DNA of 64,000 bases. It comes from a virus. A model generated the notes under the pieces. That model did no database searches. It was not told where the DNA came from and worked only from the letters and a program-made list of their open reading frames with translations. A program made the translations under genes and the position numbers. Each line of letters opens with the position of its first letter. Position 1 is the stretch's first letter. Below are positions 1-58,500 of this stretch, in pieces. Location of the stretch: the IMG/VR virus record IMGVR_UViG_3300006076_000002, positions 1-64,000 of that record; one strand, written 5' to 3'.

Positions 1-959
1 CCTAATGCATCTAGTGCTGGATAGAAATACATAGCATTCTTCTCATCTGCACTACCTTTCAGGAACCCTACTGCTTCTACATCCTCTACATCATCCACAC
101 TAGCTCTAATGTACATGATACTCTTGTATGGACTATTTGTCTTAACCAGCTTTATTGCATTACTCAGCGCAACCAGTGTCTTACCACTACCACTAGGGGC
201 CTCTACTATAACTAATGGTATCGTATTATCCTGTATAGCTCTACTCAGGAACAACTGCCCACTATTTCTTGGTACTACCTCTTGCTTACGTAGTTCTATC
301 TCACTCTCTTTACCTAGTACATTAATTGTACCTCTCTTCACCGTAGCTAGCTTTACCTGCCCAGTAGCTATATTCTCAAACCTATAGTTGAAGTTGCCTA
401 CAGTATACTCTGAGTCATAATCTAGTATACTCTTACCATGCATAGTTCTGAATGCTTCATCATCATCTACTGTTACATTCTTATTAAACTCTACTTGCTT
501 ATCCTCTACCTCACGTAGCTGTGTAGTATCTAATCCTAACGACTGGGCTCTAATACCACATGCCACATCATTGGTCATGAACACTACTTTCTCGTTAGCT
601 TGTACTACTTTCTTGTAAGCTAATGCACATTCTATGATCTTTCTATCATTAATTACATTCTTCTCCATACCAGCATAACTAGGGTACTCTCTTAAAGCTA
701 CTACAACTATAGTTTTACCTTTTAATTTGTAGTTAATAAATGTTGCATTACCTTTAGTTACCTGCCCTGTATGTTTTGCAGCAGTCATCAGTCTACCAAA
801 CTCTCTTGCCTGGTATGCTAACTCACCTAATCCGCTTTTCTTTGCATCTAGCTCATCTAGCACTACCTCAGGAATAACTATTGTGTCTTCTATATCACCC
901 ACCGTATATACATTATGTGCATCCAGGAGTGGGATATTGCTATCGATAATATACGTCAT
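1..959 (-). CDS. phoH: PIN domain + PhoH-like ATPase (PhoH2/YlaK type), 3' end outside window
   Basis: Not in ORF track. Manual translation from ATG at 959: MTYIIDSNIPLLDAH...IVIPEVVLDELDAKK (PIN), ...DRKII...MTNDVA..., then Walker A EAPSGSGKT near 178-204. TAATG overlap with the upstream ORF. Confidence 0.85.
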   Translation of the reverse strand, partial: MTYIIDSNIPLLDAHNVYTVGDIEDTIVIPEVVLDELDAKKSGLGELAYQAREFGRLMTAAKHTGQVTKGNATFINYKLKGKTIVVVALREYPSYAGMEKNVINDRKIIECALAYKKVVQANEKVVFMTNDVACGIRAQSLGLDTTQLREVEDKQVEFNKNVTVDDDEAFRTMHGKSILDYDSEYTVGNFNYRFENIATGQVKLATVKRGTINVLGKESEIELRKQEVVPRNSGQLFLSRAIQDNTIPLVIVEAPSGSGKTLVALSNAIKLVKTNSPYKSIMYIRASVDDVEDVEAVGFLKGSADEKNAMYFYPALDAL

Positions 960-1207
960 TACACCACCTCCATAACTAGGTTTTGTGTAGGATCTTGTGG
1001 ATGTACTACTAAGAGTAAATCATCTATAACTATAGTAGCTTCTTTACCAACCATCTTATTGATAGTCTGTGCTTCCTTAGCTAGTTGTTGAGCTGTGTGT
1101 TGATTACATATTACATACTTAGGTTCAGTACTCTTTTCTGCTGTACTTAACCTTTTTAGTTCAGCTAGTCTTGTCATTAATGGGGCTACTGACTTTTGCT
1201 TATCCAT
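959..1207 (-). CDS. hypothetical protein
   Basis: 82 aa ORF with AAGGA RBS, coupled to the phoH start. Confidence 0.65.
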   Translation of the reverse strand: MDKQKSVAPLMTRLAELKRLSTAEKSTEPKYVICNQHTAQQLAKEAQTINKMVGKEATIVIDDLLLVVHPQDPTQNLVMEVV

Positions 1208-1261
1208 TTAGTTCCTTTTCTTTAGATAAGTAAGTTTAACTAATGTAGCCTTCAACTAACC

Positions 1262-1771
1262 TTAGAAGGGCAACTCATCTGTACCTTTAGCCGTATCTTT
1301 TTCATTATTAGCCTGCTCATCCATCTTTATAGCCTCACATATTTTACCATACCTATCTATATCCATCCTAGTTTCACCTACTAGTAGTTCCTTATACTGA
1401 AAACTATCCATATAACTAACCAGCTCATCTATATCTACATCGGAGAACATTTCATCATACCCATCGTACTTCTTATCTGATTTATATTTTAGTTCAGCTA
1501 GTAGTTTATGTAGGTGGTTTTCAACTATGTAAGGTATCAGGAACTTTTTAGCCTTAACTATACGGCTTTTAGGTACATATCTATATACCATGAAGAAACT
1601 ACGTAGTACTTCCATCAACCTATCAGTAACTCTTGACATACTATCACTATTAACCATACCTACTTTATGTATCACGGTACCCTCATCTAGTTCTATTTCA
1701 AATATATATACTCTACCGTATGGGTTGTTAGCTACCTCACCTTCTAGTGGCTTACGTTTAACTAGTGCCAT
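1262..1771 (-). CDS. GIY-YIG-superfamily / T5orf172-like protein
   Basis: VYIFEI...HKVGM...RL...VENHLH...YDEMF pattern. Confidence 0.55.
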   Translation of the reverse strand: MALVKRKPLEGEVANNPYGRVYIFEIELDEGTVIHKVGMVNSDSMSRVTDRLMEVLRSFFMVYRYVPKSRIVKAKKFLIPYIVENHLHKLLAELKYKSDKKYDGYDEMFSDVDIDELVSYMDSFQYKELLVGETRMDIDRYGKICEAIKMDEQANNEKDTAKGTDELPF

Positions 1772-2100
1772 AGCATTCTGTATATAGCTATCAACGTAAT
1801 TGTGTGTATTAGCTGATCTAACCCTACAACTATGAAGAAATTGTGTACCTCACCTTTAGCCCACAGCTTTGAACTAGCTCTTGATGTAAAGTAGTCAACT
1901 ATAGTATGTACTATTCCATTAATTAGTGCATACATAGGATTTAGTGTAAGTATTCCCATAACTAATGTGTATGTGCCTGTATGAGCTAATAGCCATTTAT
2001 TACTGCTAGATTTGCCTTTAGCCATTTCATCTGTCTGCATTACAAAGTCAGCTACCCAATGTACAAATAATATATACATTAATACATAACTATCTACCAT
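1762..2100 (-). CDS. DUF3307-family membrane protein
   Basis: HWVADFVMQT..MAKGK, LLAH, HTIVDY, GLDQLIH signature. Confidence 0.8.
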   Translation of the reverse strand: MVDSYVLMYILFVHWVADFVMQTDEMAKGKSSSNKWLLAHTGTYTLVMGILTLNPMYALINGIVHTIVDYFTSRASSKLWAKGEVHNFFIVVGLDQLIHTITLIAIYRMLWH

Positions 2101-2102
2101 CG

Positions 2103-2546
2103 TCAGTCTCCTCTACGTCTATTCAGTTTAGCTTTCTTTTCGGTAACTAGTTTGTCTACAGTCTCTACCATATTGTTGAAGCTAGTGTAGTCTGCACTGT
2201 ATACCATAGCTGACGTGGCATTAGCTACCTCCACACTACCAGTATTGTCAAAAAATAGCGCCATAAATTCATCACCACCTATCCTATACACTTCCCACAA
2301 ACTGTCTATTGCCTGTATGTCCATAGCTATCTGTCTAATAAGTGTATCACCAGCCCCATACCCTTGCTCTCTATTAACCTTATGCAGTCCAGCAGCATCG
2401 TACATAACTAAGTAGAATGTTTGATTCTGCATCTTAGCCCTAGTCTCAACTTCGAAGTCTCTACGCATTTTCATGCCGGTAAGATGGTCATATTTATATA
2501 ACCTAACCATATTCTTATATATCTTTAGCTCTTCTTCACAAGTCAT
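2103..2546 (-). CDS. stand-alone GGDEF diguanylate cyclase
   Basis: DHLTG, YDAAGLHKVN, G.GAGD, YRIGGDEF. Confidence 0.88.
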   Translation of the reverse strand: MTCEEELKIYKNMVRLYKYDHLTGMKMRRDFEVETRAKMQNQTFYLVMYDAAGLHKVNREQGYGAGDTLIRQIAMDIQAIDSLWEVYRIGGDEFMALFFDNTGSVEVANATSAMVYSADYTSFNNMVETVDKLVTEKKAKLNRRRGD

Positions 2547-2548
2547 AG

Positions 2549-2668
2549 TTACCCTTTCTTATAAACTACTGTATCACACTTAGGACATCTAATAACTCCT
2601 GCTATTAGTCTCATCTTCATACCTTTCTTACACTTCCAGCAGTAGTGTTCTAAATATACTATATCCAT
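2549..2668 (-). CDS. 39-aa zinc-ribbon protein
   Basis: Manual translation MDIVYLEHYCWKCKKGMKMRLIAGVIRCPKCDTVVYKKG; two CxxC; GGGAG RBS; fills the gap between neighbours. Confidence 0.6.
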   Translation of the reverse strand: MDIVYLEHYCWKCKKGMKMRLIAGVIRCPKCDTVVYKKG

Positions 2669-2670
2669 AA

Positions 2671-2910
2671 CTACTCCCTACCGAAAGCTAAGTGCCCTAA
2701 CTGATTGAATACCCATTTTGATTCTTCATCATTAGTATGTACAGGTAAACTAATCCATTCTCCACCAACTATAGATCTATCATCTGGTATATTCTCCGGG
2801 AAACTATACTGTACTACTTCACCATCCTCAAATGCTATCTTAACTATTAGTGGTTTTCTTGTCTCTTTATCTTTAATCGCGTACCTATCGTCTATTTCAT
2901 CGTTAATCAT
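2671..2910 (-). CDS. hypothetical protein
   Basis: 79 aa, AGGA RBS, preceded by TGGTATAAT. Confidence 0.6.
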   Translation of the reverse strand: MINDEIDDRYAIKDKETRKPLIVKIAFEDGEVVQYSFPENIPDDRSIVGGEWISLPVHTNDEESKWVFNQLGHLAFGRE

Positions 2911-2935
2911 ATCTAATCCTGTGTTTTGTTATGAC

Positions 2936-2980
2936 ATTATACCATAGCTACTATTATAGGTATATAAGGTTAATTTAAGG
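2936..2980 (-). promoter_or_regulatory. host sigma70-type promoter(s) for the leftward operon
   Basis: Minus strand reads ...TATAATAGTAGCTATGGTATAAT (extended -10). Confidence 0.5.
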
Positions 2981-2989
2981 TAGGGCTTA

Positions 2990-3290
2990 TTGGGTAAATT
3001 TTTTAACTTTTGTGAGGGGTACCATATAAGCTTAAAGTTTTCTTAAGGGCTTATGTTGAGATGTGATTATTTTTTAGGAGGGGGTTAGTATCCACACTTT
3101 CACACTCCAACACCGAACACCCCGCCCCTATATAGACTTACCAGTCATTTCTTTCACACAGCTATCGCTACACACAAGCTCCTCAGCCAACAGTAACACT
3201 TCATCCTATGTCATTGTATACCTATCAGCTTATCGTTCCATATAGAGCAGATATGACTGTCACCTTTCACTAGCATAGCATATTAGTTTA
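2990..3290. other. divergent non-coding region, probable genome end / terminal repeat and first early promoter
   Basis: Strand switch, G-run then C-rich tract (GGAGGGGGG...CACCCCGCCCC). Position before early genes matches N4-like organisation (inference). Confidence 0.45.
3261..3284 (+). promoter_or_regulatory. putative early (vRNAP) promoter motif, copy 1
   Basis: CACCTTWCACTAsCnTAG motif repeated at 3261, 3635, 5876, each upstream of an RBS and early gene. Confidence 0.55.
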
Positions 3291-3355
3291 TGCTTACATA
3301 TAGCTATACCTGTAAAGCTCAGGCATTCCGCAACTACTGCGACGAAGGAATCACT

Positions 3356-3610
3356 ATGAAAGTAATTAAAACTTATGAAGAGTTTACAGCTACTGTAGAC
3401 GCATTAGCTAAACTATACCCTACACTTACTAAAACTGTATGCATCTCACACGGTAAAAGCATATTCACTGATATAGCTATGACTAAAGATGTAGCAGGTC
3501 AAACCCTTACTGATATCTATGGTAAACAAGTAGCTACTGACATCATCGGTGCTCTTATCCGTCATAAAGCCTATGGCTACTACCTAGCTAGACCTGTTCT
3601 TGAGGTTTAG
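3356..3610 (+). CDS. early hypothetical protein
   Basis: Start moved to ATG 3356 (AAGGA RBS). Confidence 0.7.
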   Translation: MKVIKTYEEFTATVDALAKLYPTLTKTVCISHGKSIFTDIAMTKDVAGQTLTDIYGKQVATDIIGALIRHKAYGYYLARPVLEV

Positions 3611-3634
3611 TTAAATGGCTACTTGTTAGCCTAT

Positions 3635-3658
3635 CACCTTACACTAGCTTAGCAAATT
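3635..3658 (+). promoter_or_regulatory. putative early promoter motif, copy 2
   Basis: CACCTTACACTAGCTTAGCA. Confidence 0.55.
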
Positions 3659-3857
3659 TAATTTAAAGGAGTTCTGATGTTTATTGCACCAGACGGAACT
3701 ACCCATTCTTCACTGAATGAAGTTCGTATTTATATGAGCCAAAAATAGCTCGTACTTCAATGATAAAGTATTTAACTAACTCAATAGTTAATTAACCCAG
3801 TATAGTTGTAAAGCTCAACCATTTAATACCACACCAAGTGTGAAGAAAGGCAATATT

Positions 3858-4208
3858 ATGGCAAGATTATTAAAAGATTTATCAACAGCAGTATCACATT
3901 TAGCAGGTGCAACAGTATCAGTAGCAAGTAACTCAGCAAAAGTAATTGACAGCTTAGCTAACAGCACTACAACACTTATTGACGGTACATCAGAATCTAC
4001 TGCTAACCTAATGAAGATTTCCACTAACGCTACAGCAGAGTGGGCACAAGATAGTGAGTATTCATTCAAGAAAAACACTATGGTAAACGAAGCTAAACAA
4101 AAAGCATTAGCTAGTGTTATGCAAGATGAAGACACCTTAACTAAACTACAAGAAGCAGAAAAAGCTTCACTACTAAATGACATCTTCGAAAACTACGACC
4201 TAGTATAG
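3858..4208 (+). CDS. early hypothetical helical protein
   Basis: Start likely ATG 3858 (AAAGG RBS); followed by terminator. Confidence 0.7.
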   Translation: MARLLKDLSTAVSHLAGATVSVASNSAKVIDSLANSTTTLIDGTSESTANLMKISTNATAEWAQDSEYSFKKNTMVNEAKQKALASVMQDEDTLTKLQEAEKASLLNDIFENYDLV

Positions 4209-4232
4209 TGAGCTTCTTCGGCTCACTTGTCT
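4207..4232 (+). terminator. intrinsic terminator
   Basis: AGTGAGC-TTCTTCG-GCTCACT hairpin right after the stop. Confidence 0.6.
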
Positions 4233-4498
4233 ATACACTTTTAATTACAAAGAAGAGAGTTCTTAGAGAGTGGGAATGCTTACATTATTGTTAGCTTTTA
4301 TTTACAAAGAACTACTCTTCGTCTTTTTATGTGGGGTGGTGTTCAATACTCTATATATTATATATATAATAATAGCAGTATTTGATGAGCTATGGGGCAA
4401 AAACCCTTTGAAACCTCGTGCAGTAGGGGCTTACAGAGGATTTTACCCAATCCTAGAAATGTCTCAGATTACGGTTTTCAGACAGAAACCTGTATGAA

Positions 4499-4530
4499 TT
4501 TAAGGTTTTCAGACAGTTTTATGTTATAAT
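4499..4530 (+). promoter_or_regulatory. sigma70 promoter overlapping a 13-bp direct repeat
   Basis: TTTAAG...TGTTATAAT; GGTTTTCAGACAG at 4473 and 4504. Confidence 0.6.
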
Positions 4531-4578
4531 GTTATGAAAAGAAGAGGTAGAAGAAGTACCTCTTATAAGGAATGATAA

Positions 4579-4962
4579 ATGTATTATAACACAAATGAAG
4601 TAAAAAAGCTATATAAGATAGTAAATATGGATAAAAAACGCCATAGAGAAGGACGAAAAGTGTCAGCAGATATTCGTAGAGAAATAATCAAAGAGTTGAA
4701 CCCTACTGCGTATGTACTATACGAGTACTATGTAGAAAAAGTAGAAGCACCAGAGTTTGACTTGTTTAATGATAAAATAATAGGTCAAGTATTAGGATTG
4801 TCAGAAAGAACAGTCAGAGAGTACAGAAATAAGCTAGAAAAAGCAGGTTTTATCAGGCTGTATCGTAAAAAACTAGGGGACATTGAAGCTCATGATTATT
4901 TCATAGGTAAAGATAAAGTCTTAGAACACTCTTTAATGTTAGAATCTGCAGAAACCCCTTAA
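4579..4962 (+). CDS. winged-helix DNA-binding / replication-initiator-like protein (paralog 1)
   Basis: IGQVLGLSERTVREYRNKLEKAGFI HTH; similar to 28974..29429. Confidence 0.7.
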   Translation: MYYNTNEVKKLYKIVNMDKKRHREGRKVSADIRREIIKELNPTAYVLYEYYVEKVEAPEFDLFNDKIIGQVLGLSERTVREYRNKLEKAGFIRLYRKKLGDIEAHDYFIGKDKVLEHSLMLESAETP

Positions 4963-5341
4963 ATAGGGCATTTCTAAGGATAAAACCTAGTGGAATATGT
5001 ACCTAACCTGAACCCTACCTTAATTTCCCTACCATTAAAACCCTCAACTTCAGTTCAATGATGTATCATCCTAATATTTTATACCACACTTTATACCATA
5101 ATATAGGTATATTTTGGTAAAGTTTAAGTAAACAGTGGATAGAAATGTCCGTTTTACGACTACTGTTTAAGTGTATATAATGTTTTATACCAATTTCATA
5201 AAAAGGAGACATAATGACCGCACTATTCATCTTAATAGCAATAGTAACAACAATCACATTCTTAGTTGCTGTACTAGATACAGTCAAACCTAAGTTGCTA
5301 GAAGACCTAGCAGATAAATTCTTTTAAAGGAATACAGTACT

Positions 5342-5593
5342 ATGGAAATATTAGGTATAATTGCGCTTTTAATAGCAGGTATAACAGTACTATTAGCACT
5401 TGTTGTAGATAAAAGCATGTTAGCTATGATTACATTTGTAGTAGTAGTAATAGCGTTTATAGCATTCGAAGTACATAGAAGTGATTTACAGCAGACAGAA
5501 GAGTATAAACAATATAGAGACCATAGTTATCATAACTACTCTAAAGATAAAGAGTATAGAAAATGGTTAATTGACAACCCAAAGGAGAAATAA
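5342..5593 (+). CDS. small membrane protein
   Basis: Two hydrophobic segments, RBS. Confidence 0.65.
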   Translation: MEILGIIALLIAGITVLLALVVDKSMLAMITFVVVVIAFIAFEVHRSDLQQTEEYKQYRDHSYHNYSKDKEYRKWLIDNPKEK

Positions 5594-5844
5594 TGAAAAC
5601 ACTACCATGGAACCGTATCCTCAAGGATATCATTTACAATCACACAGAAGATACAATCGAATTTACTATCAAAGACATAGAAAACCTTGATAGTTATATT
5701 AACCAAAAGCTATCTATAGCTAATCAACTAGAAAGTCAGAACGAAGGCTTAAGAAAACGAGTAGCTAAATTAGAACAACAACTACTAATTGCTACCTTGA
5801 CTAAGTCTACACAGAAAGTGTCAGACTTCAGTACTTACGCATAG
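5593..5844 (+). CDS. hypothetical coiled-coil protein
   Basis: AAGGAG RBS, TAATG coupling. Confidence 0.65.
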   Translation: MKTLPWNRILKDIIYNHTEDTIEFTIKDIENLDSYINQKLSIANQLESQNEGLRKRVAKLEQQLLIATLTKSTQKVSDFSTYA

Positions 5845-5875
5845 ATATTCCCAGTTAATTACCTATCTCTACTTC

Positions 5876-5899
5876 CACCTTACACTACCCTAGATATCT
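5876..5899 (+). promoter_or_regulatory. putative early promoter motif, copy 3
   Basis: CACCTTACACTACCCTAGAT upstream of the RNAP cluster. Confidence 0.55.
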
Positions 5900-5962
5900 T
5901 TATGTGTTACCTGAAATGGTTCCTTACTTTATACTAATTATACATCCGTAGGAGGATACATC

Positions 5963-6781
5963 GTGAAATATACAATCAATACTAAAGCAACAAACCCAGT
6001 TATTAATGAAGAACTTAAAGTACTTAGAGCAACTAACAAAGACTTAGCACTTAACATCCGCAAAGCATATAATTCAATGCTAAACAAAGAGTTTACGGAA
6101 CTTCCACAGACTCCAGAAGACTTAGTTCCTTATATGACTAACAAGAATGTAGCACAATTCGTTAAACCTGCTATTGCTAATGTTATCTTTAATCTTATTC
6201 AGTTCAACGAAGAAGACGCTTGTTGTGCTCAAGAAGAAGCTCCAGTAGAAGTAACTACAGCTCCATTAGATTTAAGTACAGCTACTCCAGCACAACTTAC
6301 TCAAATATTGTTCGATGATTTAGGAACAGAAATCCAATCACAGATTCAAGCTATGACTACAAGTCTCAAACTTAAACTAGATCTCTTAGATGAGCTTAAA
6401 GCCTCTCTCAAAGAACTATACCCAGATATGCAGTCAGAAGTACTTACAGAAAAGTTAGCTAATGCTCTTGCAGTAACTAAGCTTAAAGTTGGCAGTTCAC
6501 TTGCTCTTAGAGAAGGCTCATTAGCTGTATACGACTATATGAATACAGATCTAGTAGTAGACTCTAAGAACTTTGAGTTTATGGCTTCATTAGACGCAGA
6601 TAAGACTAAATCTCTTGATATTCTTATATTGCAGTCAGCGTTCCGTAGCTATAAAGAACAGGTAGCTCAAGGTAATTTACCAGCAACTAGTCCAGAATTA
6701 AATTTAGCTATAGCAAAAGCTATCAGTGGCATTCAAACTACATCGGAGGATACTAAAGCAAAATTAGCAAACCTCTTCTAA
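5963..6781 (+). CDS. hypothetical protein next to the RNAP gene (possible RNAP subunit or accessory factor)
   Basis: 272 aa, strong AGGAGG RBS, GTG start; function inferred from position only. Confidence 0.6.
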   Translation: MKYTINTKATNPVINEELKVLRATNKDLALNIRKAYNSMLNKEFTELPQTPEDLVPYMTNKNVAQFVKPAIANVIFNLIQFNEEDACCAQEEAPVEVTTAPLDLSTATPAQLTQILFDDLGTEIQSQIQAMTTSLKLKLDLLDELKASLKELYPDMQSEVLTEKLANALAVTKLKVGSSLALREGSLAVYDYMNTDLVVDSKNFEFMASLDADKTKSLDILILQSAFRSYKEQVAQGNLPATSPELNLAIAKAISGIQTTSEDTKAKLANLF

Positions 6782-29445: not shown

Positions 29446-29892
29446 ATGAATACGTCAAGCAGAATAAACAAAGTAATATACGAGCTAGTGTCATACTATA
29501 TAGATAATCAACTACCTTTCAATATTATCGCACTAGATAAGGAAGATAGTTTTGATTTACCAAAAGAAGTGTACTACGATAATAGCAACGCAGTATCTAT
29601 AGATATACTAGAATGGAATCTAGAGACTGCTGAGTATGACGATAAACATTTATATGTAACATATGTATATAACAATGAGGAAATACCTCTAACTATACCG
29701 CTAGTAAACATAAACACTATTATGGATATGACACATAGAAGTATAGTATTTGTAAACATATTTGAAACAAATATAGATGATGTAATAGTTACTGATACAA
29801 ATCTAAAAGTAGAAAAATATGTAAAAACACATGAAAAAGAGATAGCTCATTCAATGAGTTGTTTATCTCTATGCAACAGTAAGGACGTATAA
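29446..29892 (+). CDS. hypothetical protein, possibly SspB-like fold
   Basis: Recalled resemblance to a conserved epsilon-proteobacterial protein (LP.E...ETA..DD..L....IPL..I..I...FVN); unverified. Confidence 0.35.
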   Translation: MNTSSRINKVIYELVSYYIDNQLPFNIIALDKEDSFDLPKEVYYDNSNAVSIDILEWNLETAEYDDKHLYVTYVYNNEEIPLTIPLVNINTIMDMTHRSIVFVNIFETNIDDVIVTDTNLKVEKYVKTHEKEIAHSMSCLSLCNSKDV

Positions 29893-30224
29893 TGGCTAAT
29901 ATATTAGGACAAGACGAGATAGATGCATTGTTAGATGTATGCGATGAAACTACAGACTTAGAGAATTTACAATATCTAAGAGCCTTCTTTAGAGAAGCTC
30001 CTGTTGAAGGTACTGTTAATGACACCTATATACGAGTATCTAACAATTTAGCAAAAGATATCATAAAGCAACTTGGTAGTGCTATCATAACATTGGAACG
30101 TTTAACAGAAGATGGTAGTAAGGCTAAAAATAGTTATAAAGAATGCGGTACTTGTACAGTGTGCGGAACATACAACGACCCAGACAGGCAGGTATGTAAC
30201 TGCGCCAATAAGCAATTAATTTAG
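29892..30224 (+). CDS. protein with FliM N-terminal CheY-binding-like peptide and C-terminal Cys cluster
   Basis: MANILGQDEIDALLDVCDE matches the FliM ILSQxEIDALL motif; CxxCxxC...CxC tail. Confidence 0.7.
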   Translation: MANILGQDEIDALLDVCDETTDLENLQYLRAFFREAPVEGTVNDTYIRVSNNLAKDIIKQLGSAIITLERLTEDGSKAKNSYKECGTCTVCGTYNDPDRQVCNCANKQLI

Positions 30225-48316: not shown

Positions 48317-51300
48317 CTACAGTCCTCTATGGATAGCCTCAACTAGTGGGATTTCTGTCCCACCATTAAGTAGACTGCCCAAACCGTGGAATGGATTAAT
48401 TCTATTCCAGAATACAGAGAACAAGTTACTATCAAAGATATCCGATTCATCACCCAACACTGCTTGCTCTAATTTACTAGCTGCAACTCTTGCCGGTGAT
48501 TCCTTCAGCATTTTAATATTAACTCTCTGTATATTTGCAAAATACGTCCAAAATGCTTCAGGACCCATTCTCTCTAACCATCTGACAGTTTTACTGTTTA
48601 TAACTTTGCTATAGTTAATAAAGCTATCCGTAACAAACCTGAATACATCCTCCTCATTCTCACCTTTTTCCATCTTAGCCCAATACATAGCAGCTCTAAA
48701 GTGAAAGTCACTCTCTCTAGTAGCTCTCAACAAGAACTTACCTGCTGCACTTCTCTGAGTCAAGAACAACGTCTCAACTGCATCTCTAGCTAATCCTTCA
48801 TCACCTGTAACCTTTTCAGATAATCCTCTCAATTTTTTACTAATTTTATTTGTATCATCATATATTGCAACATCATCAATTACCGACTGGTACAAACCTT
48901 TAGCCATCAATGGTCTCAACGGATTATTATCCAACTTGTACTGCACATCTGATATGTTTCTCTCAAGATTAGCTTTTTTACTCCCACTAGCACCTTTAAC
49001 CAATCTCTGCAATCTATGTAACTCCTCCTCATCTTTTTTCCAGGTATCTAATGATCTAATACTTTTAATCATCAACGTAATTGCCTGTCTCACCGGCACT
49101 CCGCTATAAAACAGTATCCTCATATTCGACAGTATATTATTCCATATAGTACTAGGTAATCTGACAACCACATTACCTTTGAGCAATCCTATGAAATCCT
49201 TCCAGTAACTTTCAACAACCTGTACTTTATATTTAGTTCCAACATCCACCTTATTAAATATTTTCATATCTGTAATACTCGGCTCTTGATATCCGAATAA
49301 CTGAGCTATCAAATCTTTACGTATATAAATCTCTCTCCTTGGATTGTCATCTACACTTTTAAGCTGTTCTTCCATTGTCATACGATATCTTTTATCTGTA
49401 TCATGTATTCTCTTATACACCTCAGTACCAGGCTTTTTAGCATCTTCACGTATTTTAGCCTTATCTACTTCTATGTTATGCTTAATAATATTATCTCTGG
49501 CATCTGGCGGTAACAATCCCCATAGTTCCTCACCTTCAGTTTTAATCCCATATTTACCTTTATCCAGTAACTCTTTATTACCATTCTTATACATCTCACG
49601 TCTAGTCTCTTCACTTAAGTCAAAATCCTTAGCTCTTACGTGTATAAACAATCTCGAAGTATCTTTAGTTGGATCGTTAGACTTAATATAACTATCTGCA
49701 TAATCCTTATACAATATCCTAAGTACCTTTTGATTCTCCTTATCTGTCATCGGTTGTGTGCCTACGTGTCCCTCACTCTTAGCCAACACTTCTGCACCTC
49801 TAGTATCTAATTCTAAATATCTAATTTTGTCTTTCTTGCTAATTCCGTACCTAAAATCTGTTATATACCCTTGATCATTGAACACTGGATGCATATTTCC
49901 TATATTTTCACCATCCATATATTTTTGCACTAATGCACTCCTACTTCTTATATACAACTTCCATACAGCATCTTCAGTCAATCCTGGATTTGACATTCTT
50001 ATCTTATCTCTAAGTAGCAGCCCTTGCACTTTTTCTCTCTGCAGACCTACCGAACCATCTACACGTCCAGCTACCTGCAAGTTACTATTTACATACTTTC
50101 CGTACTGCACTGGATCAGCATCCTTCAAGTCTCTATCTAGCACTTCAACCAGTGTAAACCCTAACTCATTCATCTTTTTCTTCTCAGATACCGGAGCTAT
50201 CTGTAGTTCTCTATTCCTATTGTAAGTATCTCTCACCTGCCCTTTTACATAGCTTTGAGGTTCATACTTATCATACTCCTCTTTCACAGCTACCTGCAAT
50301 CCTTTAGCGTACTCTGTATATGCCATAACCCCATCAGGATCTTTCTCCAGTAATTCCAGCATAGTATCTTTAGCTTTGTCATCTATATGTGTCAATGCGT
50401 ACAACGATATCAGCTTATCCACATCTTTAACTAACTTCTCATCCACTTCTGTTTCCCAGTAAGGCTTCATCTCTATGTGTGTACCAAACCCTCTAACTAT
50501 GTTCTCTGCATTGGTTCTCAACCCTACCCCAGTAACCGCATACTGAGCAGCTTTGTGTGCATCCTTAGTTATCGCTTTATACCAGAAGTCACTACCTTGC
50601 TTAGCTATTTTAGCCTCTAATTCTTTAATATCTTTCCCAGGATTAGTTATATACCCTTTTAAACCATATGCACTCTCAGCATCCAATGCCTGTAGATCTG
50701 CTGACATAATTACTGCTTCCAGTGCATGGTCATACTTCTTATTCTCTTTCTTAAGTAAATCCACTTTCTTAAACATAGTCTTATACACATCTACCAGTGT
50801 ACCTTCATAGTTCTGGTGTCTTAATCTATCTATGTGTGATCTAAACTCCATAGTTAAGTCGGTAACCAGCTCTAATGTCTTTCTACCTGCCGTAAAATCT
50901 GCAAACAACTTTCTCAAGAAGCTATCCTCTGCAATCTTCATAGCTGACAAATAGTTACCCCATAGGATCGCTAGGTGTGGTCTCTGGTACTCATCTGCAC
51001 CTTGTATAGCAGCTTTAAACTTAGGCAGTATTCTAGCTAACTTGATAAACTTGACCAGTATATTGTCACTGTCTTTAGGCCAATTATGCTTTATTGGATT
51101 ATACAAATCATCAAACTCTTGTTGTGTCATACCTTGTTTAGTTACACCTAATGTATTCTGTAGTAAATCATCCACTCTACCCGATATTTTCTTATCTACT
51201 TCATCTAACACTTTATTCAATGTATCTGATACTTTTTCATCTGCATGCTTACCACGTCTCATTGCTGCTTCACTACCGTACTTATCCTTGATAGCCATCA

Positions 51301-52537
51301 ACTTGTATATCGTTTTAACCGTCTCTTCTTCTACATTCTTACCCTTAGCACCTTTAAACTTATGCACCACTTTAGCTAGAAAGTCAGCTATCATATGCAC
51401 TACCTTATCATATGCACTTTTATATTCTTTCTCTTTCTTCTCTGTAGTTATACTTTCTAGTGCATTCTTCATCTGTTTATTCGTCATAGCATATGCCATA
51501 AACTCCTGCAATCTTACAGATGCTGCTCTAGTATCTTCTTTACCTTTTCTACCGAAGATGTAATCATATCTATCTTTAGCAGCATCTTTCTCCGCTTCCG
51601 TATACAACCCATCCTTAACTAAATGTTCTGGTTTCAGAGTCTCTCTAGCCTTCTTATACAGCTCTTGTATCTGTAACTTCAGTGCATCTGCTTCTGTACC
51701 TGCATGTTTATTGTCAAACACCCAATCCAATGCTGCATGTACTACTTCATGTACCAGTGTCTCCTCATTTGTCATAGTTAACCTATTTCTAGCTTCTTGA
51801 CTTAATGTACCTGTCTTTATTTTTATCGGAGCTAGTGGGTCATTCTTATCAAACTGTCCGTAAGGCTCTACCACTTTAGCTATCTGTTCTGTATTCAGCT
51901 TAACTACTGTCTTACCCAGATCCTTACTCAGCTTCATCACATTGCTCAATACTTCATCTAAATGCTTCCCATGTTCACTGTCATACTCTTCACCCATCAG
52001 ACTTTTATCTAGTCTTCTAAGCTCGTCTCTTACATTCAGTATCGTATTTTCTGTACTCTCTTCACCAAGAAACAGTCTATCTATATCCTCATCTGTGAGT
52101 TCATCTTTGTTGTACAGCACATCATTCACGTACCCTCGTTTAATTACCTCTGTAACCCCTGGCATCTCCACCACTGTTCCATTAGCTTTCGTAGCTATAC
52201 TTTTCTCACTACCCCTCTCAAACGTGTACTGGTGATTGTTATCTAGCACAACTGTAGTCTTACCTGCTCTAGGCTTGTATATGACTTTCTTTATACCTAG
52301 TTTCTTACTCTCTCCACTCTTCAGTGGGTCCTTGTTGCTGTAGTGTACCCAGACATCCTTTGGCATGTTATCCTGTAGATATTTCTCTGTAGCCTTTTTA
52401 CGTGACTGCCAGTATACCTTCTCAGCTGTAATCTGCTTAGTGAGAGCTTCTACTTCTCTCTCTAGCTCATCACCTTTATACTTACCTTCTAACTCTTCTC
52501 TTACTTTAGCTTCTATGCTTCTTGTATCACATGCCAT
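48317..52537 (-). CDS. large virion protein, probably the separated C-terminal domain of N4-type virion RNAP
   Basis: 1406 aa, TAATG-coupled to the vRNAP gene; ETLVHEVVH, QEFMAY, FINY; size close to the N4 vRNAP CTD (recalled ~1400 aa). Confidence 0.7.
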   Translation of the reverse strand: MACDTRSIEAKVREELEGKYKGDELEREVEALTKQITAEKVYWQSRKKATEKYLQDNMPKDVWVHYSNKDPLKSGESKKLGIKKVIYKPRAGKTTVVLDNNHQYTFERGSEKSIATKANGTVVEMPGVTEVIKRGYVNDVLYNKDELTDEDIDRLFLGEESTENTILNVRDELRRLDKSLMGEEYDSEHGKHLDEVLSNVMKLSKDLGKTVVKLNTEQIAKVVEPYGQFDKNDPLAPIKIKTGTLSQEARNRLTMTNEETLVHEVVHAALDWVFDNKHAGTEADALKLQIQELYKKARETLKPEHLVKDGLYTEAEKDAAKDRYDYIFGRKGKEDTRAASVRLQEFMAYAMTNKQMKNALESITTEKKEKEYKSAYDKVVHMIADFLAKVVHKFKGAKGKNVEEETVKTIYKLMAIKDKYGSEAAMRRGKHADEKVSDTLNKVLDEVDKKISGRVDDLLQNTLGVTKQGMTQQEFDDLYNPIKHNWPKDSDNILVKFIKLARILPKFKAAIQGADEYQRPHLAILWGNYLSAMKIAEDSFLRKLFADFTAGRKTLELVTDLTMEFRSHIDRLRHQNYEGTLVDVYKTMFKKVDLLKKENKKYDHALEAVIMSADLQALDAESAYGLKGYITNPGKDIKELEAKIAKQGSDFWYKAITKDAHKAAQYAVTGVGLRTNAENIVRGFGTHIEMKPYWETEVDEKLVKDVDKLISLYALTHIDDKAKDTMLELLEKDPDGVMAYTEYAKGLQVAVKEEYDKYEPQSYVKGQVRDTYNRNRELQIAPVSEKKKMNELGFTLVEVLDRDLKDADPVQYGKYVNSNLQVAGRVDGSVGLQREKVQGLLLRDKIRMSNPGLTEDAVWKLYIRSRSALVQKYMDGENIGNMHPVFNDQGYITDFRYGISKKDKIRYLELDTRGAEVLAKSEGHVGTQPMTDKENQKVLRILYKDYADSYIKSNDPTKDTSRLFIHVRAKDFDLSEETRREMYKNGNKELLDKGKYGIKTEGEELWGLLPPDARDNIIKHNIEVDKAKIREDAKKPGTEVYKRIHDTDKRYRMTMEEQLKSVDDNPRREIYIRKDLIAQLFGYQEPSITDMKIFNKVDVGTKYKVQVVESYWKDFIGLLKGNVVVRLPSTIWNNILSNMRILFYSGVPVRQAITLMIKSIRSLDTWKKDEEELHRLQRLVKGASGSKKANLERNISDVQYKLDNNPLRPLMAKGLYQSVIDDVAIYDDTNKISKKLRGLSEKVTGDEGLARDAVETLFLTQRSAAGKFLLRATRESDFHFRAAMYWAKMEKGENEEDVFRFVTDSFINYSKVINSKTVRWLERMGPEAFWTYFANIQRVNIKMLKESPARVAASKLEQAVLGDESDIFDSNLFSVFWNRINPFHGLGSLLNGGTEIPLVEAIHRGL

Positions 52538-55500
52538 TAGTCACACTCCAACTGATCTAGTATTTTATTTGCTATTATATCCATTTCTGGGTTAGTCTCT
52601 GCTTTAACCTCTTGCAAAGGTCTATTAGCTAACGGAGTATCAACCACCTCGTCGGGCTCAACACTATGATTTTCGTACACCAATTCTTTTGGTAATTTAC
52701 TCTTATCTAGTTTATTCTTAGGCACTTTAGGTACGTATTCCTCTTTACCTTCAGCTCTATACTCAGCACCATCTAATGCACTGTGTCCTACACTGAAGTC
52801 AGTCTCAAACAGCACTTTACGACCTTCTTCAGCTCTTTTCTGTAATTGTTCCATCTCTTTCACTGTACTTCTCATTGTAGGTAGATGTGTTATATCTCTC
52901 ATTCTACCAACACTCATCATAGCTATCCTAGCATTATCACTCATATCCATTTCACTGACTGTATTCAGGTACTCGTTGTAAGCATCGCTCAAATCACCAT
53001 CAAGCTTACTCAGGAATGTTTTAACCGCAGCTAACACTTCATTTTGATTCTTACCTATCTCAACTACTAATTCTTTCTGTTCTGCGTATGACAACCCGTC
53101 TAATGCTGTAGGTGCTTCACCTTGTATCATATCGTATATGTCACTTACCGGATTCGTAAGCATCTTTCTAACTACATTCAGTACAGACTCCATAGCCGTA
53201 TCATCTTCTACTTTCTGTATGACTTCTTTATCTACACCATTCAACGTAGCATACAAGCTATCTAGCATCTCTGTAGTTAAACTCCAATCCTTGCTCAAAT
53301 GATATGCAGACTTGTTGTAAGACTTAGTTACACCCATAGCTTTATCTACTGTAGCGAAGTTTGCATCATGCACTCCTAATGCTTCCCACTTAGCTAGCAC
53401 TTCAGCTTGTATCGAAGCATCCTGTGCGTGTATCGGCATTACCGCTCCACTAGTAAACGCAACTACCATCTTGTACAACTCACTGTTAGCTCTCAGCTTA
53501 TCACCGTTAGCTCTCTCTATCTTACCCTGGAGGTTTATAGCAGTGTTCATAGTACCTTCTGTCCAATCACCTTTAGCAGTCTTGAACAGCACCATTTGAT
53601 CCCCATTACCATTGTCTAATGCCATATTTATAATCGGTAAGATAACCTTATTAGCTTTGAGTATAGCATCCACTTCTTTAGTAGTTAACGGTACCCATTT
53701 ACTTTTATGTTTACCCTCATTCTTCTTTTTAGTTTCTATATCTATTTGTTTATTCACTTCTTCTAATGCAATCTTACCTATCAACGCAATCGTACTATTC
53801 GTAGTTCTAGTAGCCTTAATCAATTCTCCATACTGTTCTTCAAATGTATCTCTAATCGGTTTACCAACCACTCTAGCTACATGCTCTTGTACCATCTCGT
53901 AGAAGTTATCCGGTATCTTCATGTTAAGCACATTCATCGGTGTTTTATCTAACTCTGCCCTCAACTTACCTAACCATGCATCTACAGCTTCACTTTGCTT
54001 ATCGTAGTACATTTTCTTACCTGTAGACGGATCTACCATCAAATACGAAGATGCTTTTAATGCTCTCTTCATCAGGTCAAATGCACCCTCTACTTCACTT
54101 ACTTTCTTAGATGTTGCCATCGTAGTCATTAACGCATTCAAGTTACTTTTAGAGGGATATGGTGTACCACTAGTAGATAATGCTCTCTTAGCTATACTAT
54201 TGATAATACCTTTCATACCTGAACCGTAGTTAAGTACCATGAACGGATGTTTCATGAATGCTCTAGATATTTCTTCTATCAGATGTTCTTCACCATCACG
54301 TGTACCTTCTCCAAGTAACTCCATAGCTACTTCCATACCTTGGAGTATACCTTTAGCTCTTTTCTCTATCTCTGCTTGCGTACCTTTAACTAAAGCTGGG
54401 TGTGGAACCGGTTTTCCTATGAAACTTGGTACCGGATCTACAAACTTTAATTCCGCTAACCCTTTACTGTTATCGAGTACTACTCCTTTAATTTCACCCT
54501 TCACATTTATATTTACTTTTTTAGCGTTTTCCACTTTCTGCCTAAATAATTCAGCAGGTTCTTGGTATGCATCTCTCTTAGTCTTATCATCAGCTATTTC
54601 TGAATACTTTGGCACGTGTCCATCTTTTACTCTCATGAATCCACCACGCTCTAATTCTTCAAACGTTTTCTTCATGTCAAGTTTACCACCCTTCACGAAT
54701 ATTGGCATCTGTAGCATCTTGAGTATGTAACCGCTAGTTACTGCATCCGTCTCTAACATGATCGTAGACATATATGCTTCATCACTAGCACTTTCTTTAT
54801 GGTTCATGTACTTGAGTATTTCTATCATACCTTTTATACCATGCTCATCATGCACACCTAGCACATCCACTAACTCTTTCAGATCGTCATTTGTAATATC
54901 TTGTATTGTAGGTATCTTAGCATCACCAAACACTCCATTAACTTTAGCTTCTAACCCTGCATACTGTTTTATAGATTTACCCATAGGTAACTTATCTACA
55001 TCAACACCTAGTGCTTGCCCGATAGCTAACTTTAATATCTTCTCTTCTGTACTACCTAGTTTAACTTCAGCTTTACCCATGTCTGTAGCAAATCTATGCA
55101 ATAGTATTGATTGATGGTCAAATTTACCACCTATGATACCAAATCTAAAGTTTGTAAGTATTCTCCACTTCTGCCAGAATGGTTTCTTACCTTTATCTGT
55201 AGCTTCATACACTTCATCTAGTAGTTTCTTCTGTCTATCTATAGCGTCATTCTTACCTTTAGCACCTTCTCTTTCATTCACATATATCGTATCTGGGTCT
55301 ACTTTACCTAATATCTTATCTAGCAGTGAGTATGGTACATCTTCTCCGTTCTCATCATATCCTGTAGTGTCTGCAATTCCATCTAGCTTATCTAACCCTG
55401 TCATGAAATCTTCACCGATAGTCAATCTTGTATCACTCTGCTTCTTAACTGCTTTAACTCTAGGTTCCGACACTGAGAACAACTTAGACACACTTTGGTG

Positions 55501-58500
55501 TTCAGTAGGCGTATCCTCCATCTCATGCTTGTTATCTTCTGTGTATATACCCAATGAATCCTCAGTAGGTTCTAATACCTTTTCTAAGTCTGTAGTCATA
55601 CCTTTATGTGCTTTAATCAGATCTTTAGCTGTAGTTGTCAAATTGTATGTAACTATATCTGGTTTACCTGCATCTTTATCATTCTCATATATCATTGCAG
55701 CTGGAGTCTTATACCCTTTCTTAAACACCATTTCTTTCTTAAGTTTTATATCTCTATCTTTAGCATTTAGTATTATATACTCAGCTTTCTCTAACGCTAA
55801 CATACCTAGCATACCTAACTCTGCTTTTAGTTTCTGCTCTATATACTCAGTATCTAACCCTTCTGGTGCATCCTTTACAGCTTTAAGTCCTAGTGCTTTC
55901 CAAGCCTTATTACCTATAGTACTTGACACATAATCCATTATTCCATCAAAGTCTTTGATTGACATTCTATCAGTCTGGCTTACCGGAGCATTTTTATCCA
56001 TACCCTTCAACGCTCTTACTGCATTGTTGTCTCTACGTTCTGAGTCAAACTTAGCCATACTATCTGTCAACACTTCTACTGCGCTTGTTGCCAATGCCTC
56101 AGCTACCTTACCGTTTAACTCTAGTTTACCTTTATTAGCGAACTCACCTTCAGGCACTGTATATGCCATTAGCATTCTACTTACACTTTGGAATCCTTCT
56201 ACACTATCTGTACCAAACCACACCATGTTAGCTCTTGCAGATGATAAGTCATTCTCTACTACACTTTGTACACTTCCTGTCAATTTCTTTATAGTTACAC
56301 CTGCAGTAAGCAAGTTCTTCTGTGCTACACTTGACAGTGTTTCCTTTTTCTGTGCTAGTAACTCTCTTAGCACATCTAAAGCTGTAGCATTTAAATTCTT
56401 AGGCTCTGTAGCAGCTTTGAAGAACTCGTGTAAGTAACCTTTGCCGTATGCAACATCTACACCATTTTTAGCTTCAGTAACGTGATGGGATTTATTGTCA
56501 GCAGTCCATGCAAGTATACTACTAGCTACTTTGTTATCTCTTTCAGCTGTTTTATCTATCAGTTCAGATTTCTTTTCTTTGATTGCAGCTTTGGTGTCTT
56601 TTACCTTATTATTAACCTCTTGCATTTGTAATATACGCTTTATGGTTTTCTTTCTAGTTTCTGTTAATTTTCGTTCTTTGCCTTGTGTTTGGTCTTTTAT
56701 GAAATCTTTTTTATATTCAAGCTCATCTTTTTTAGCTACCTTTTTGTCAATAGCCTGTTGTATACTACTTTCTACTTTTTTGTTGGTAGTTTCAGCTAGT
56801 TTATTATACAACGCATCAACACTGCTATCTATGCTTGCTATATAGCTATTTATACGCTTTATACTAGCATTAGACTTTTCTAACTGTTTAGCTGTCCACA
56901 TCCTAGTTTGTATGGCATTTCTGAGTATATGTCTTTTAGTATTTTTAAAGTTATACCCATCTGTCAGTTTATCTAGTGTGTTCTGTTTCTCGTATACTTC
57001 TTTTTCTAGCTCTTTAATTTCAACCTCTAAATTGGCTATTTCTTTATCTATACCTGTTAGCTCTTCTTGCTTAGGTTTTGTGCTCTCTGTATTGCCTTGT
57101 CCAGTACTTTGTTCTGTTCCTGTAGTAGTGCTTTTTTCTTCTGTAACAACTTTAGTTTCTTCATTTTGTTTTGCATCTATTTTTCCTTTATTTAGTAATC
57201 CTAATTTTTTAAGCGCAAATACATTTGCATCTTTTTCATATAATGCAGGATCAGCAGTATATTTTTTTCTGAACTCTTCTTTTCCGTATTTGCCTATCTG
57301 TTGTGTATGTCGATACTCGTGTAATAACAGAAATTTACGTATATCTTGTGGGCTTAGCTTACTTATCGTATCTAAGAAGTCTATACTATAGTCTTTATTT
57401 ATGCTATCTGTAACCTGTTGTTTAGTAAGTATAACCTCTTTAGACTTTTCGTCTTTAAACTCTCTATGAGTACTTAAGTAATCTAATACCTTTTTTGCTG
57501 TAATGTTCTTACTGAGTCTAATTTTACTACCGTCAGAAGAGGTACCAGCCAACTGTCCATTAGAAGCATCTGCCGAGTAGTATCTAATAGGTATACCAGC
57601 TACAGTAGCTGTCTGTACATTCGCATTTTTCTCTTTTACTGCACCTTCTACGACAGGTGCAGCTTCCTCAACCTTTTGCTGCGTAGTTTCAGCTTGTTGT
57701 GGCTTACCTACCTCTAGTGTACCGTTGATAGTGTCTGTAGCTAAACTGTTTATGTCTTGTAGTAACTTGTACTCTTTCTCTAATTTTGCTGTAAACCCTT
57801 CAGACTTTTTACCGTCATACACGTACTTACTTCCAGGATAGTTCACATCTACTTTTAGTTTAGCTAGGTCATTTTTAGCTTTATCTAACCCTGCAGCATC
57901 TTTACCTATAGCCTCTAAGTTTTTGATAGTTTCACGTAAGTTATCAGCCTTCTCTTTATACACTCTTTGAGCAGCTTTAAATGCATCCCTCTTCTCTGCT
58001 TGAGTACTCATAAACTTATTCATAGCTATTATTGCACTATCTCTAGCTGTATCTGATTGAGCGTTTATGACTGCATCTAGGTGTTCTAGCATCCCTAGTT
58101 TTCGCTTACCTTTGTACTCTCCACCAAGCAGCTTTAACGCTAACGATTCATTCTTATTAGCTTTATCTACTACCGTAACCCCATTAAAGTCTTTACTATG
58201 TACCAGATCACTAACCAATTTCTCAGCTTTCAGTTTAGCTAACTCTTTTACCTTTTCACTTTTAACAGTTTCATCTGTTATATCAGCTAACTCTGTCTGA
58301 ACTTCTGCCATATCCTTAGCTATTTCTTTAGGGTCCCTATTCCCTAATATTTCTGATTCACCATTTAGTTTACGTCTAAGGTTCAGAGCATCTTGCAGAT
58401 GTTTAGTAACTAACTCTTTTTCAGTTATTATCTCTGGAGTACTGTCTAATGAATCTAATGTTGTTAAATGAGTCATTAAGTCATCTATATTTTTATTTAA

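Follow-up and report, generated by a model that had tools for sequence, protein, structure and literature searches.

The question raised by this locus is whether a very small phage GGDEF protein that lacks any sensor domain can function as a diguanylate cyclase. The window analysed comprises the opening 64 kb of an IMG/VR virus record of 92,858 bp, a record with terminal repeats and a completeness rating of 100%. The mini-GGDEF gene (P0001; 2103..2546, minus strand) begins with an ATG preceded by AAGAAAGGG and encodes 147 aa plus a stop; its assignment draws on the open reading frame, a Pfam match, an AF2 model, VIA-align superposition and dN/dS. The initial annotation had given the gene without its strand. 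Pfam GGDEF (PF00990) matches the protein with an E-value of 1.2e-9 and 38.6 bits against a curated cut-off of 23.8, the match being limited to residues 18-112 and profile positions 2-104 of 161. The reading frame and this above-threshold match confirmed that the product is a stand-alone, GGDEF-only protein, as first proposed, and both motifs that had been described as intact were located, GGDEF in the active-site hairpin read from the sequence (residues 90-94; 2265..2279, minus strand) and DHLTG at residues 20-24. The TIGR00254 score of 31.2 bits lies under the cut-off of 37.4, and an NCBIfam search of the protein matched named diguanylate cyclases only below threshold.

The mini-GGDEF gene is a real gene under strong purifying selection. 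Comparison with its ortholog in a near-identical viral locus (L002; 95% identical protein) gave a dN/dS of 0.039, with approximately 36 synonymous and 8 non-synonymous differences. Twenty-two close homologs of 134-160 aa, sharing 52-95% identity in alignment, are invariant at GGDEF, D50, H55, N58, R59, D67, R88, K138 and R144. An all-against-library search returned 4867 matches; among the top 100, some 70 are proteins of 145-220 aa that stand alone. Conservation extends to an alignment of 112 short relatives with a mean identity of only about 32%, in which D50, D67 and G91 are each kept in 109 proteins, N58, D92 and F94 in 110, and E93 and K138 in 111. The GGDEF motif, which the initial annotation had wished to see preserved in homologs, is thus present across the family.

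The conserved positions are those expected of a working cyclase. In the Thermotoga maritima diguanylate cyclase tDGC the strictly conserved residues are Asp126 and Asp169, which serve Mg binding, and Asn134 and Asp143, which serve guanine binding (PMC4215984). D50, D92, N58 and D67 of the mini-GGDEF protein match Asp126, Asp169, Asn134 and Asp143, respectively, with identical spacing. The corresponding guanine-reading pair in PleD is N335/D344. Specificity for GTP has been shown to depend on an Asp at the specificity position; the combination of this Asp with GGDEF behaves as an active diguanylate cyclase in GacA mutants, and the fourth residue of the GGDEF motif (Glu) acts across the dimer (PMC6456294). 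The specificity-position Asp, the GGDEF motif and the cross-dimer Glu are all present here. A Hypr GGDEF assignment (cGAMP production) was rejected by the criterion of the same report (PMC6456294), as position 67, which corresponds to the specificity position on the Watson-Crick face, is Asp in 109 of the 112 short relatives and not Ser.

The AF2 model, built from the 22-sequence alignment, has a pLDDT of 87.9 and a pTM of 0.79. It contains helices at residues 3-16 and 28-41, a strand at 45-51, helices at 54-61 and 63-78, strands at 83-88, 93-98 and 110-116, and a final helix at 123-140, an order given as beta-alpha-alpha-beta-beta-beta-alpha. The top Foldseek matches of this model are exclusively diguanylate cyclase GGDEF domains, and 47 sequences of solved diguanylate cyclases are matched by a profile made from the 22 close homologs. 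VIA-align superposed the model on solved diguanylate cyclase domains, among them YfiN (7a7e), tDGC (4urs), PleD (2v0n) and WspR (3bre), with Z-scores of 15-16 and an rmsd of 1.7-2.5 Å over 122-131 residues. The model nevertheless departs from the complete canonical GGDEF fold, as it has neither the helix that follows the GGDEF hairpin nor the terminal strand. A loop at residues 99-109 (2220..2252, minus strand) takes the place of canonical helix alpha3 and the next hairpin in the AF2 element order, strand 93-98 being followed by strand 110-116 without an intervening helix. The stretch matched by model residues 18-143 is 157-160 residues long in the solved domains, so that approximately 25-30 residues of the latter have no counterpart, while the rest of the fold superposes at an rmsd of about 2 Å. 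The shortened C-terminal half that had been noted from the sequence is borne out by the spacing between GGDEF and the conserved Asp of the last helix, which is 36 residues here and 35-37 in most short proteins as opposed to 55-63 in long or canonical ones. The last helix (residues 123-140; 2127..2180, minus strand) carries D131, kept in 95 of the 112 short relatives, and K138, and is followed by a basic RRR tail at residues 143-145; we infer that it is the counterpart of the canonical ADxALYxAK helix.

The trimming extends to the machinery of product inhibition. An RxxD allosteric site is common in GGDEF domains, although catalysis does not require it. In tDGC the inhibitory RxxD motif occupies residues 158-161 and GGDEF residues 167-171 (PMC4215984). 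The claim that the phage protein has no RxxD I-site held, since DSLW (residues 81-84; 2295..2306, minus strand) stands at that position, at the same offset from GGDEF as in tDGC. Among the short relatives RxxD occurs in one of 102, as against 12 of 49 long ones. The PleD I-site presumably also uses an Arg located on the helix that is deleted from the mini-GGDEF protein and, if so, the entire inhibitory surface is absent from the latter. The nearest functional analogy is the R158A variant of tDGC used for bulk c-di-GMP production. This is likewise an isolated GGDEF domain, in which a single I-site mutation removes product inhibition and permits very large yields (PMC4215984). tDGC is also a structural match to the model (Z 15.6, rmsd 2.1 Å over 128 residues), but the R158A enzyme keeps the complete fold and owes its property to an engineered point mutation, whereas the I-site of the phage protein was lost naturally.

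The short N-terminal helix of the initial annotation is present in the AF2 model at residues 3-16 (2499..2540, minus strand), where it forms an amphipathic, putatively dimerising stalk with a lower pLDDT of 68-76. In relatives, an amphipathic helix 14-40 residues long, its hydrophobic positions spaced as in a zipper, immediately precedes YK[YF]DxLTG. According to VIA-align, the model aligns from its first residue with the stalk or coiled-coil helices of Pseudomonas aeruginosa SiaD (7e6g), Caulobacter crescentus DgcB (6ttr), GCN4-WspR (3i5c) and SadC (4wxo), and also with IsPadC. In SiaD, DgcB, the GCN4-WspR fusion and SadC, as in WspR itself, the helix runs straight into DxLTG and GGDEF as it does here; the whole model (residues 1-144) superposes on them with Z-scores of 15-16, and they share its catalytic and guanine-binding residues. 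They differ in having the full nine-element fold, usually an RxxD motif, and upstream control by a sensor or partner, whereas the phage protein is without alpha3, last strand, I-site and sensor. Because the model aligns with GGDEF proteins that have a dimerising stalk, and because the helices of relatives are zipper-like, the quaternary state is likely to be a constitutive parallel dimer.

Taken with the purifying selection, the catalytic and guanine-reading residues, the GGDEF fold, the loss of the I-site and the stalk-like helix fit the proposal that this is a feedback-insensitive diguanylate cyclase. We consider it fairly probable that the mini-GGDEF protein is a sensor-less, catalytically competent, zipper-dimerised, I-site-less and constitutive c-di-GMP synthase that acts alone, its dimerisation, product, constitutive activity and host effect being the parts that we infer. 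Under this model the amphipathic N-terminal helix would pair two chains in parallel, in the manner of the WspR, DgcB and SiaD stalks or the GCN4-WspR zipper, and the pairing would unite two GTP-loaded half-sites. D50 and D92 would hold the Mg ions, N58 and D67 would read guanine, E93 would work across the dimer, and the phosphates would be bound by K138 and the basic tail as two GTP molecules are condensed to c-di-GMP. With the RxxD loop and the post-hairpin helix gone, the product would be unable to lock an inactive dimer, and synthesis would be bounded solely by expression and GTP supply. The c-di-GMP level of the infected cell would then rise whatever the host inputs, the likely outcome being loss of motility and an altered cell surface or matrix. 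Because the enzyme has no feedback site, the infected cell would probably be flooded with c-di-GMP. A trimmed domain without a core palm helix and the last strand might, for its part, lack stability or activity in the absence of a partner.

The incomplete palm fold is also the starting point for a non-catalytic reading, in which the stalk helix and half-site block or hijack host diguanylate cyclases, or the domain just binds GTP or c-di-GMP. Degenerate GGDEF domains that serve as receptors or partners are well known, FimX and LapD being examples, and FimX and LapD domains are among the structural matches of the model. Phage-encoded peptides that bind a host diguanylate cyclase also exist (PMC8085984). 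Nonetheless, some 110 of the 112 relatives keep the metal ligands, GGDEF, guanine readers and K138, although they come from unrelated phages whose hosts presumably differ, and the I-site, which is the usual c-di-GMP-binding surface of degenerate GGDEF domains, is missing. The dominant-negative partner offered by the initial annotation is unsupported for the same reason, as D50, N58, D67, GGDEF and K138 would not be expected to persist so widely among diverged relatives (about 110 of 112) if the protein were a non-catalytic binder. We therefore regard a binding role as quite improbable and retain the constitutive c-di-GMP synthase as the preferred reading.

One part of the active site is less easily reconciled with that reading. 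The substrate residues had been described as variant on the basis of KVNREQGY; the variation is real but the register was off by one, the Lys of canonical FKxxND aligning by HMMER with H55 and not with K56. The variant stretch is therefore L-H-K-V-N-R-E-Q-G-Y, in which H55, R59 and Y63 stand for the canonical K, D and H within the segment that also holds metal-binding D50 and guanine-reading N58 and D67 (residues 50-67; 2346..2399, minus strand; placed by tDGC spacing and conservation). These K-to-H55, D-to-R59 and H-to-Y63 swaps fall close to the phosphate-binding loop, at positions that are highly conserved elsewhere, and count against the c-di-GMP synthase reading. The triad occurs in 58 of the 112 short proteins, while K-D-H dominates the long GGDEF proteins of the same search (53 of 71); the three positions co-vary and mark the short clade. 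Mainly because this clade carries H55-R59-Y63, we keep the alternative that the protein is an active nucleotidyl cyclase that chiefly makes something other than c-di-GMP or serves an end other than c-di-GMP signalling. The remodelled residues might then lead, for example, to linear pppGpG, a mixed dinucleotide or a runaway reaction that drains the host GTP pool. Hypr GGDEF domains show that the fold can switch product (PMC6456294), and with neither I-site nor sensor any turnover would be unchecked. The base-reading Asn and Asp are nonetheless of the GTP-specific type rather than the Hypr Ser type, and the sequence carries no sign of adenine recognition.

A viral locus elsewhere in the family also argues against a different product. 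At L015, a 191-aa HD_5 (HD-GYP-type) protein (L015:5409-5981; Pfam E 4.4e-30) is encoded by a gene that overlaps the beginning of the mini-GGDEF gene there. This neighbour is a hint of c-di-GMP turnover, with paired synthesis and breakdown, and agrees with c-di-GMP as the product. In view of this evidence the other-product alternative seems unlikely to us, and c-di-GMP synthesis remains the reading we favour.

The minimal stand-alone architecture further invites comparison with mCpol/OptS of the Panoptes system, a palm cyclase of similar size that constitutively makes cyclic dinucleotides (PMC12657218). mCpol has no GGDEF motif, uses ATP, is bacterial and always occurs with a 2TM effector. The phage protein, in contrast, has a perfect GGDEF, a DxLTG lead-in and a Pfam GGDEF match, is viral and is without a conserved partner. 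An mCpol/OptS identity was rejected, given the intact GGDEF, a membrane-protein neighbour (DUF3307) that is present only in L002 and in none of the 21 other viral loci, and the result of a PADLOC search, which gave no match at the mini-GGDEF locus with a library of defence, not anti-defence, models.

The distribution of the gene was examined in viral and bacterial collections. Megablast of window positions 1-6000 against the phage collection gave no match, and tblastn of the protein against the same collection returned nine weak records with no N4-like isolate among them. As to Schitoviridae, whose survey the initial annotation had suggested, none of the isolates in that collection has a detectable homolog. 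IMG/VR, on the other hand, contains 39 loci with relatives, 22 of which carry short open reading frames of 141-222 aa, and the nearest ESM Atlas clusters comprise proteins of 154-166 aa that are 90-100% viral where taxa are recorded. Among bacterial contigs (one genome per species), the 79 readable of the best 80 pattern-selected loci all encode multidomain proteins of at least 200 aa. Homologs of the virion RNA polymerase (vRNAP) are present in the L005 and L006 records but absent from G006 (40 kb) and G010 (110 kb), both of which are complete, and the mini-GGDEF gene therefore occurs in unrelated phage lineages. Separately, six loci (L027, L028, L030, L035, L037 and L038) contain viral frames of approximately 2,700-3,900 aa with a segment like the mini-GGDEF protein (phmmer E 1e-4 to 1e-6 against it), which are predicted to be giant multi-domain phage proteins carrying a GGDEF module.

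The mini-GGDEF gene is a mobile single-gene moron of unrelated phage lineages, and this could point to another purpose. Here c-di-GMP would still be made, but the pay-off would lie in phage-phage or phage-defence conflict, either by shutting off receptors such as flagella or pili against superinfection or by blocking cyclic-nucleotide immune signalling. An anti-restriction gene adjoins gp44 of Pseudomonas phage YuA, a related GGDEF gene, and two adjacent small proteins of the present genome (29892-30224 and 30246-30470, plus strand), which start with MANILGQDEIDALL and MKDILNEKEVNEIL, begin with a putatively FliM-N-terminus-like I-L-x-Q-x-E-I-D-A-L-L pattern that suggests a flagellar target. 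The start of the first protein (29892-30224) appears closely similar to the CheY-binding N-terminal peptide of FliM, and a FliM-like peptide together with a c-di-GMP synthase would target two inputs of the flagellar motor. The lack of a PADLOC match (defence models only) and of a conserved partner gene speaks against a conflict role, and we hold it to be rather improbable as the purpose of the gene. Similarly doubtful is the further proposal that the H55/R59/Y63 clade is a virus-specific cyclase to which the remodelled phosphate-binding region and the loss of the back-side helix lend a product or kinetics absent from cellular GGDEF proteins, such as a non-c-di-GMP nucleotide or a runaway GTP sink. 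In this phage it would work with the two FliM-like peptides against host motility or other phages.

For the favoured c-di-GMP synthase the closest known relative is YuA gp44 (156 aa), which is likewise a small, sensor-less, stand-alone phage GGDEF protein, with orthologs in Yuavirus and Vojvodinavirus, and is annotated as 'contains diguanylate-cyclase domain; putative role in host cell conversion'. Alignment of a 62-member mini-family profile with YuA gp44 by hhalign gave 98.8% probability and an E-value of 1.3e-16 over 119 columns, covering the full length. The aligned region includes the shortened stretch that follows the GGDEF hairpin, and the mini-GGDEF protein has the further features of the YuA gp44 type, namely a phage protein of approximately 140-220 aa with a helix, a shortened GGDEF domain and no other domain. 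They differ in that pairwise identity is 26% and that YuA gp44 has SGDEF and the canonical K/D/H (LKWINDNLGH) instead of H/R/Y; moreover, YuA is a temperate-like Pseudomonas siphovirus while the phage studied here is an N4-like podovirus. Bordetella Vojvodinavirus LK3 also carries a small GGDEF gene, and its lysogens are hyperbiofilm formers, a report without enzymology (PMC8471281). By analogy, the LK3 phenotype may be taken as circumstantial support for c-di-GMP synthesis. Our literature search found no paper testing a phage GGDEF enzyme, YuA gp44 included. Judged from these sequence comparisons, the mini-GGDEF gene belongs to a phage gene type that has been annotated since 2008 (YuA gp44, LK3), and its features of interest are the trimmed architecture and the H/R/Y signature. 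If active, it would be about the smallest natural diguanylate cyclase, consisting of one helix and a catalytic core of approximately 125 residues; the helix after the GGDEF hairpin would be dispensable for catalysis, and there would be direct evidence that lytic phages write, beyond reading, the c-di-GMP state of the host. A naturally feedback-free mini-enzyme would also serve as a compact tool for raising cellular c-di-GMP or for enzymatic production, and because the family is widespread in uncultured phages a single assay would annotate many genes.

The genomic setting was analysed for partners and for the timing of expression. A 1406-aa open reading frame matches the PHROG 'virion RNA polymerase', and primase, family-A DNA polymerase and ribonucleotide reductase genes are also present in this genome of approximately 33-34% G+C. 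The gene content marks the phage as N4-like, though distant: the isolates nearest to it in DNA polymerase sequence, Alteromonas phages AD45-P1 to P4 and R22Y, share about 40% identity. The tie that had been drawn to the c-di-GMP-controlled glycan used by coliphage N4 stands, at this distance, as an analogy only.

The GGDEF gene is the third gene of a leftward block and adjoins a divergent intergenic region (2911-3290). The contig start cuts a PIN-PhoH gene and genes lie on the minus strand throughout from 76,000 to the contig end; the block therefore starts at approximately 2910, crosses the contig junction and extends as far as the vRNAP genes at 48,317, and the cut gene also indicates that the contig's own ends are an assembly wrap-around. 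The mini-GGDEF gene heads this long leftward block, which includes the structural genes, and, if this entails late expression, little time would be left for behavioural effects. Directly downstream is a 112-aa DUF3307 membrane protein (1762-2100, minus strand; Pfam E 3.7e-11), whose ATG follows the TGA stop of the GGDEF gene after two bases and whose ribosome-binding site (GGAG) lies inside the last GGDEF-gene codons. Retention of DUF3307 in L002 alone makes a functional partnership improbable. Upstream, between a 79-aa gene and the GGDEF gene, is a 39-aa zinc-ribbon-like open reading frame with two CxxC pairs (2549-2668, minus strand), the stop of which is separated by two bases from the ATG of the GGDEF gene; L002 conserves this frame, but it is not found upstream of mini-GGDEF genes at other viral loci. 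A conserved operon partner was rejected, as DUF3307, a T5orf172 protein, the 79-aa protein and the 39-aa frame are shared with L002 alone and, in part, with L004. When the neighbours at 22 viral loci were clustered all against all, no family was common to the loci, which argues that the mini-GGDEF protein acts alone.

A sigma-70 promoter scan of positions 1-4600 gave 10 sites, fewer than the shuffled mean of 18. A TATA-NN-TGTAAAGCTCA-NN-CATT hairpin motif, in contrast, has two matches on the plus strand (3305-3327 and 3801-3823), a number that none of 100 shuffles reached, and the stems of the two copies (CCTG...CAGG and GTTG...CAAC) are compensatory. Both precede the first genes of the rightward direction and resemble the N4-type hairpin promoters that serve the virion RNA polymerase; the plus-strand motif is absent upstream of the GGDEF operon. 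Within the divergent intergenic region, positions 3000-3290 contain G- and C-rich runs (GAGGGGG, CCCCGCCCC) amid approximately 33% G+C, and this stretch may be a physical genome end or packaging site. The N4-type vRNAP itself (48317-60678, minus strand) is split into two abutting open reading frames of 2713 and 1406 aa, and the PHROG match of the 1406-aa frame covers profile positions 2231-3009 only.
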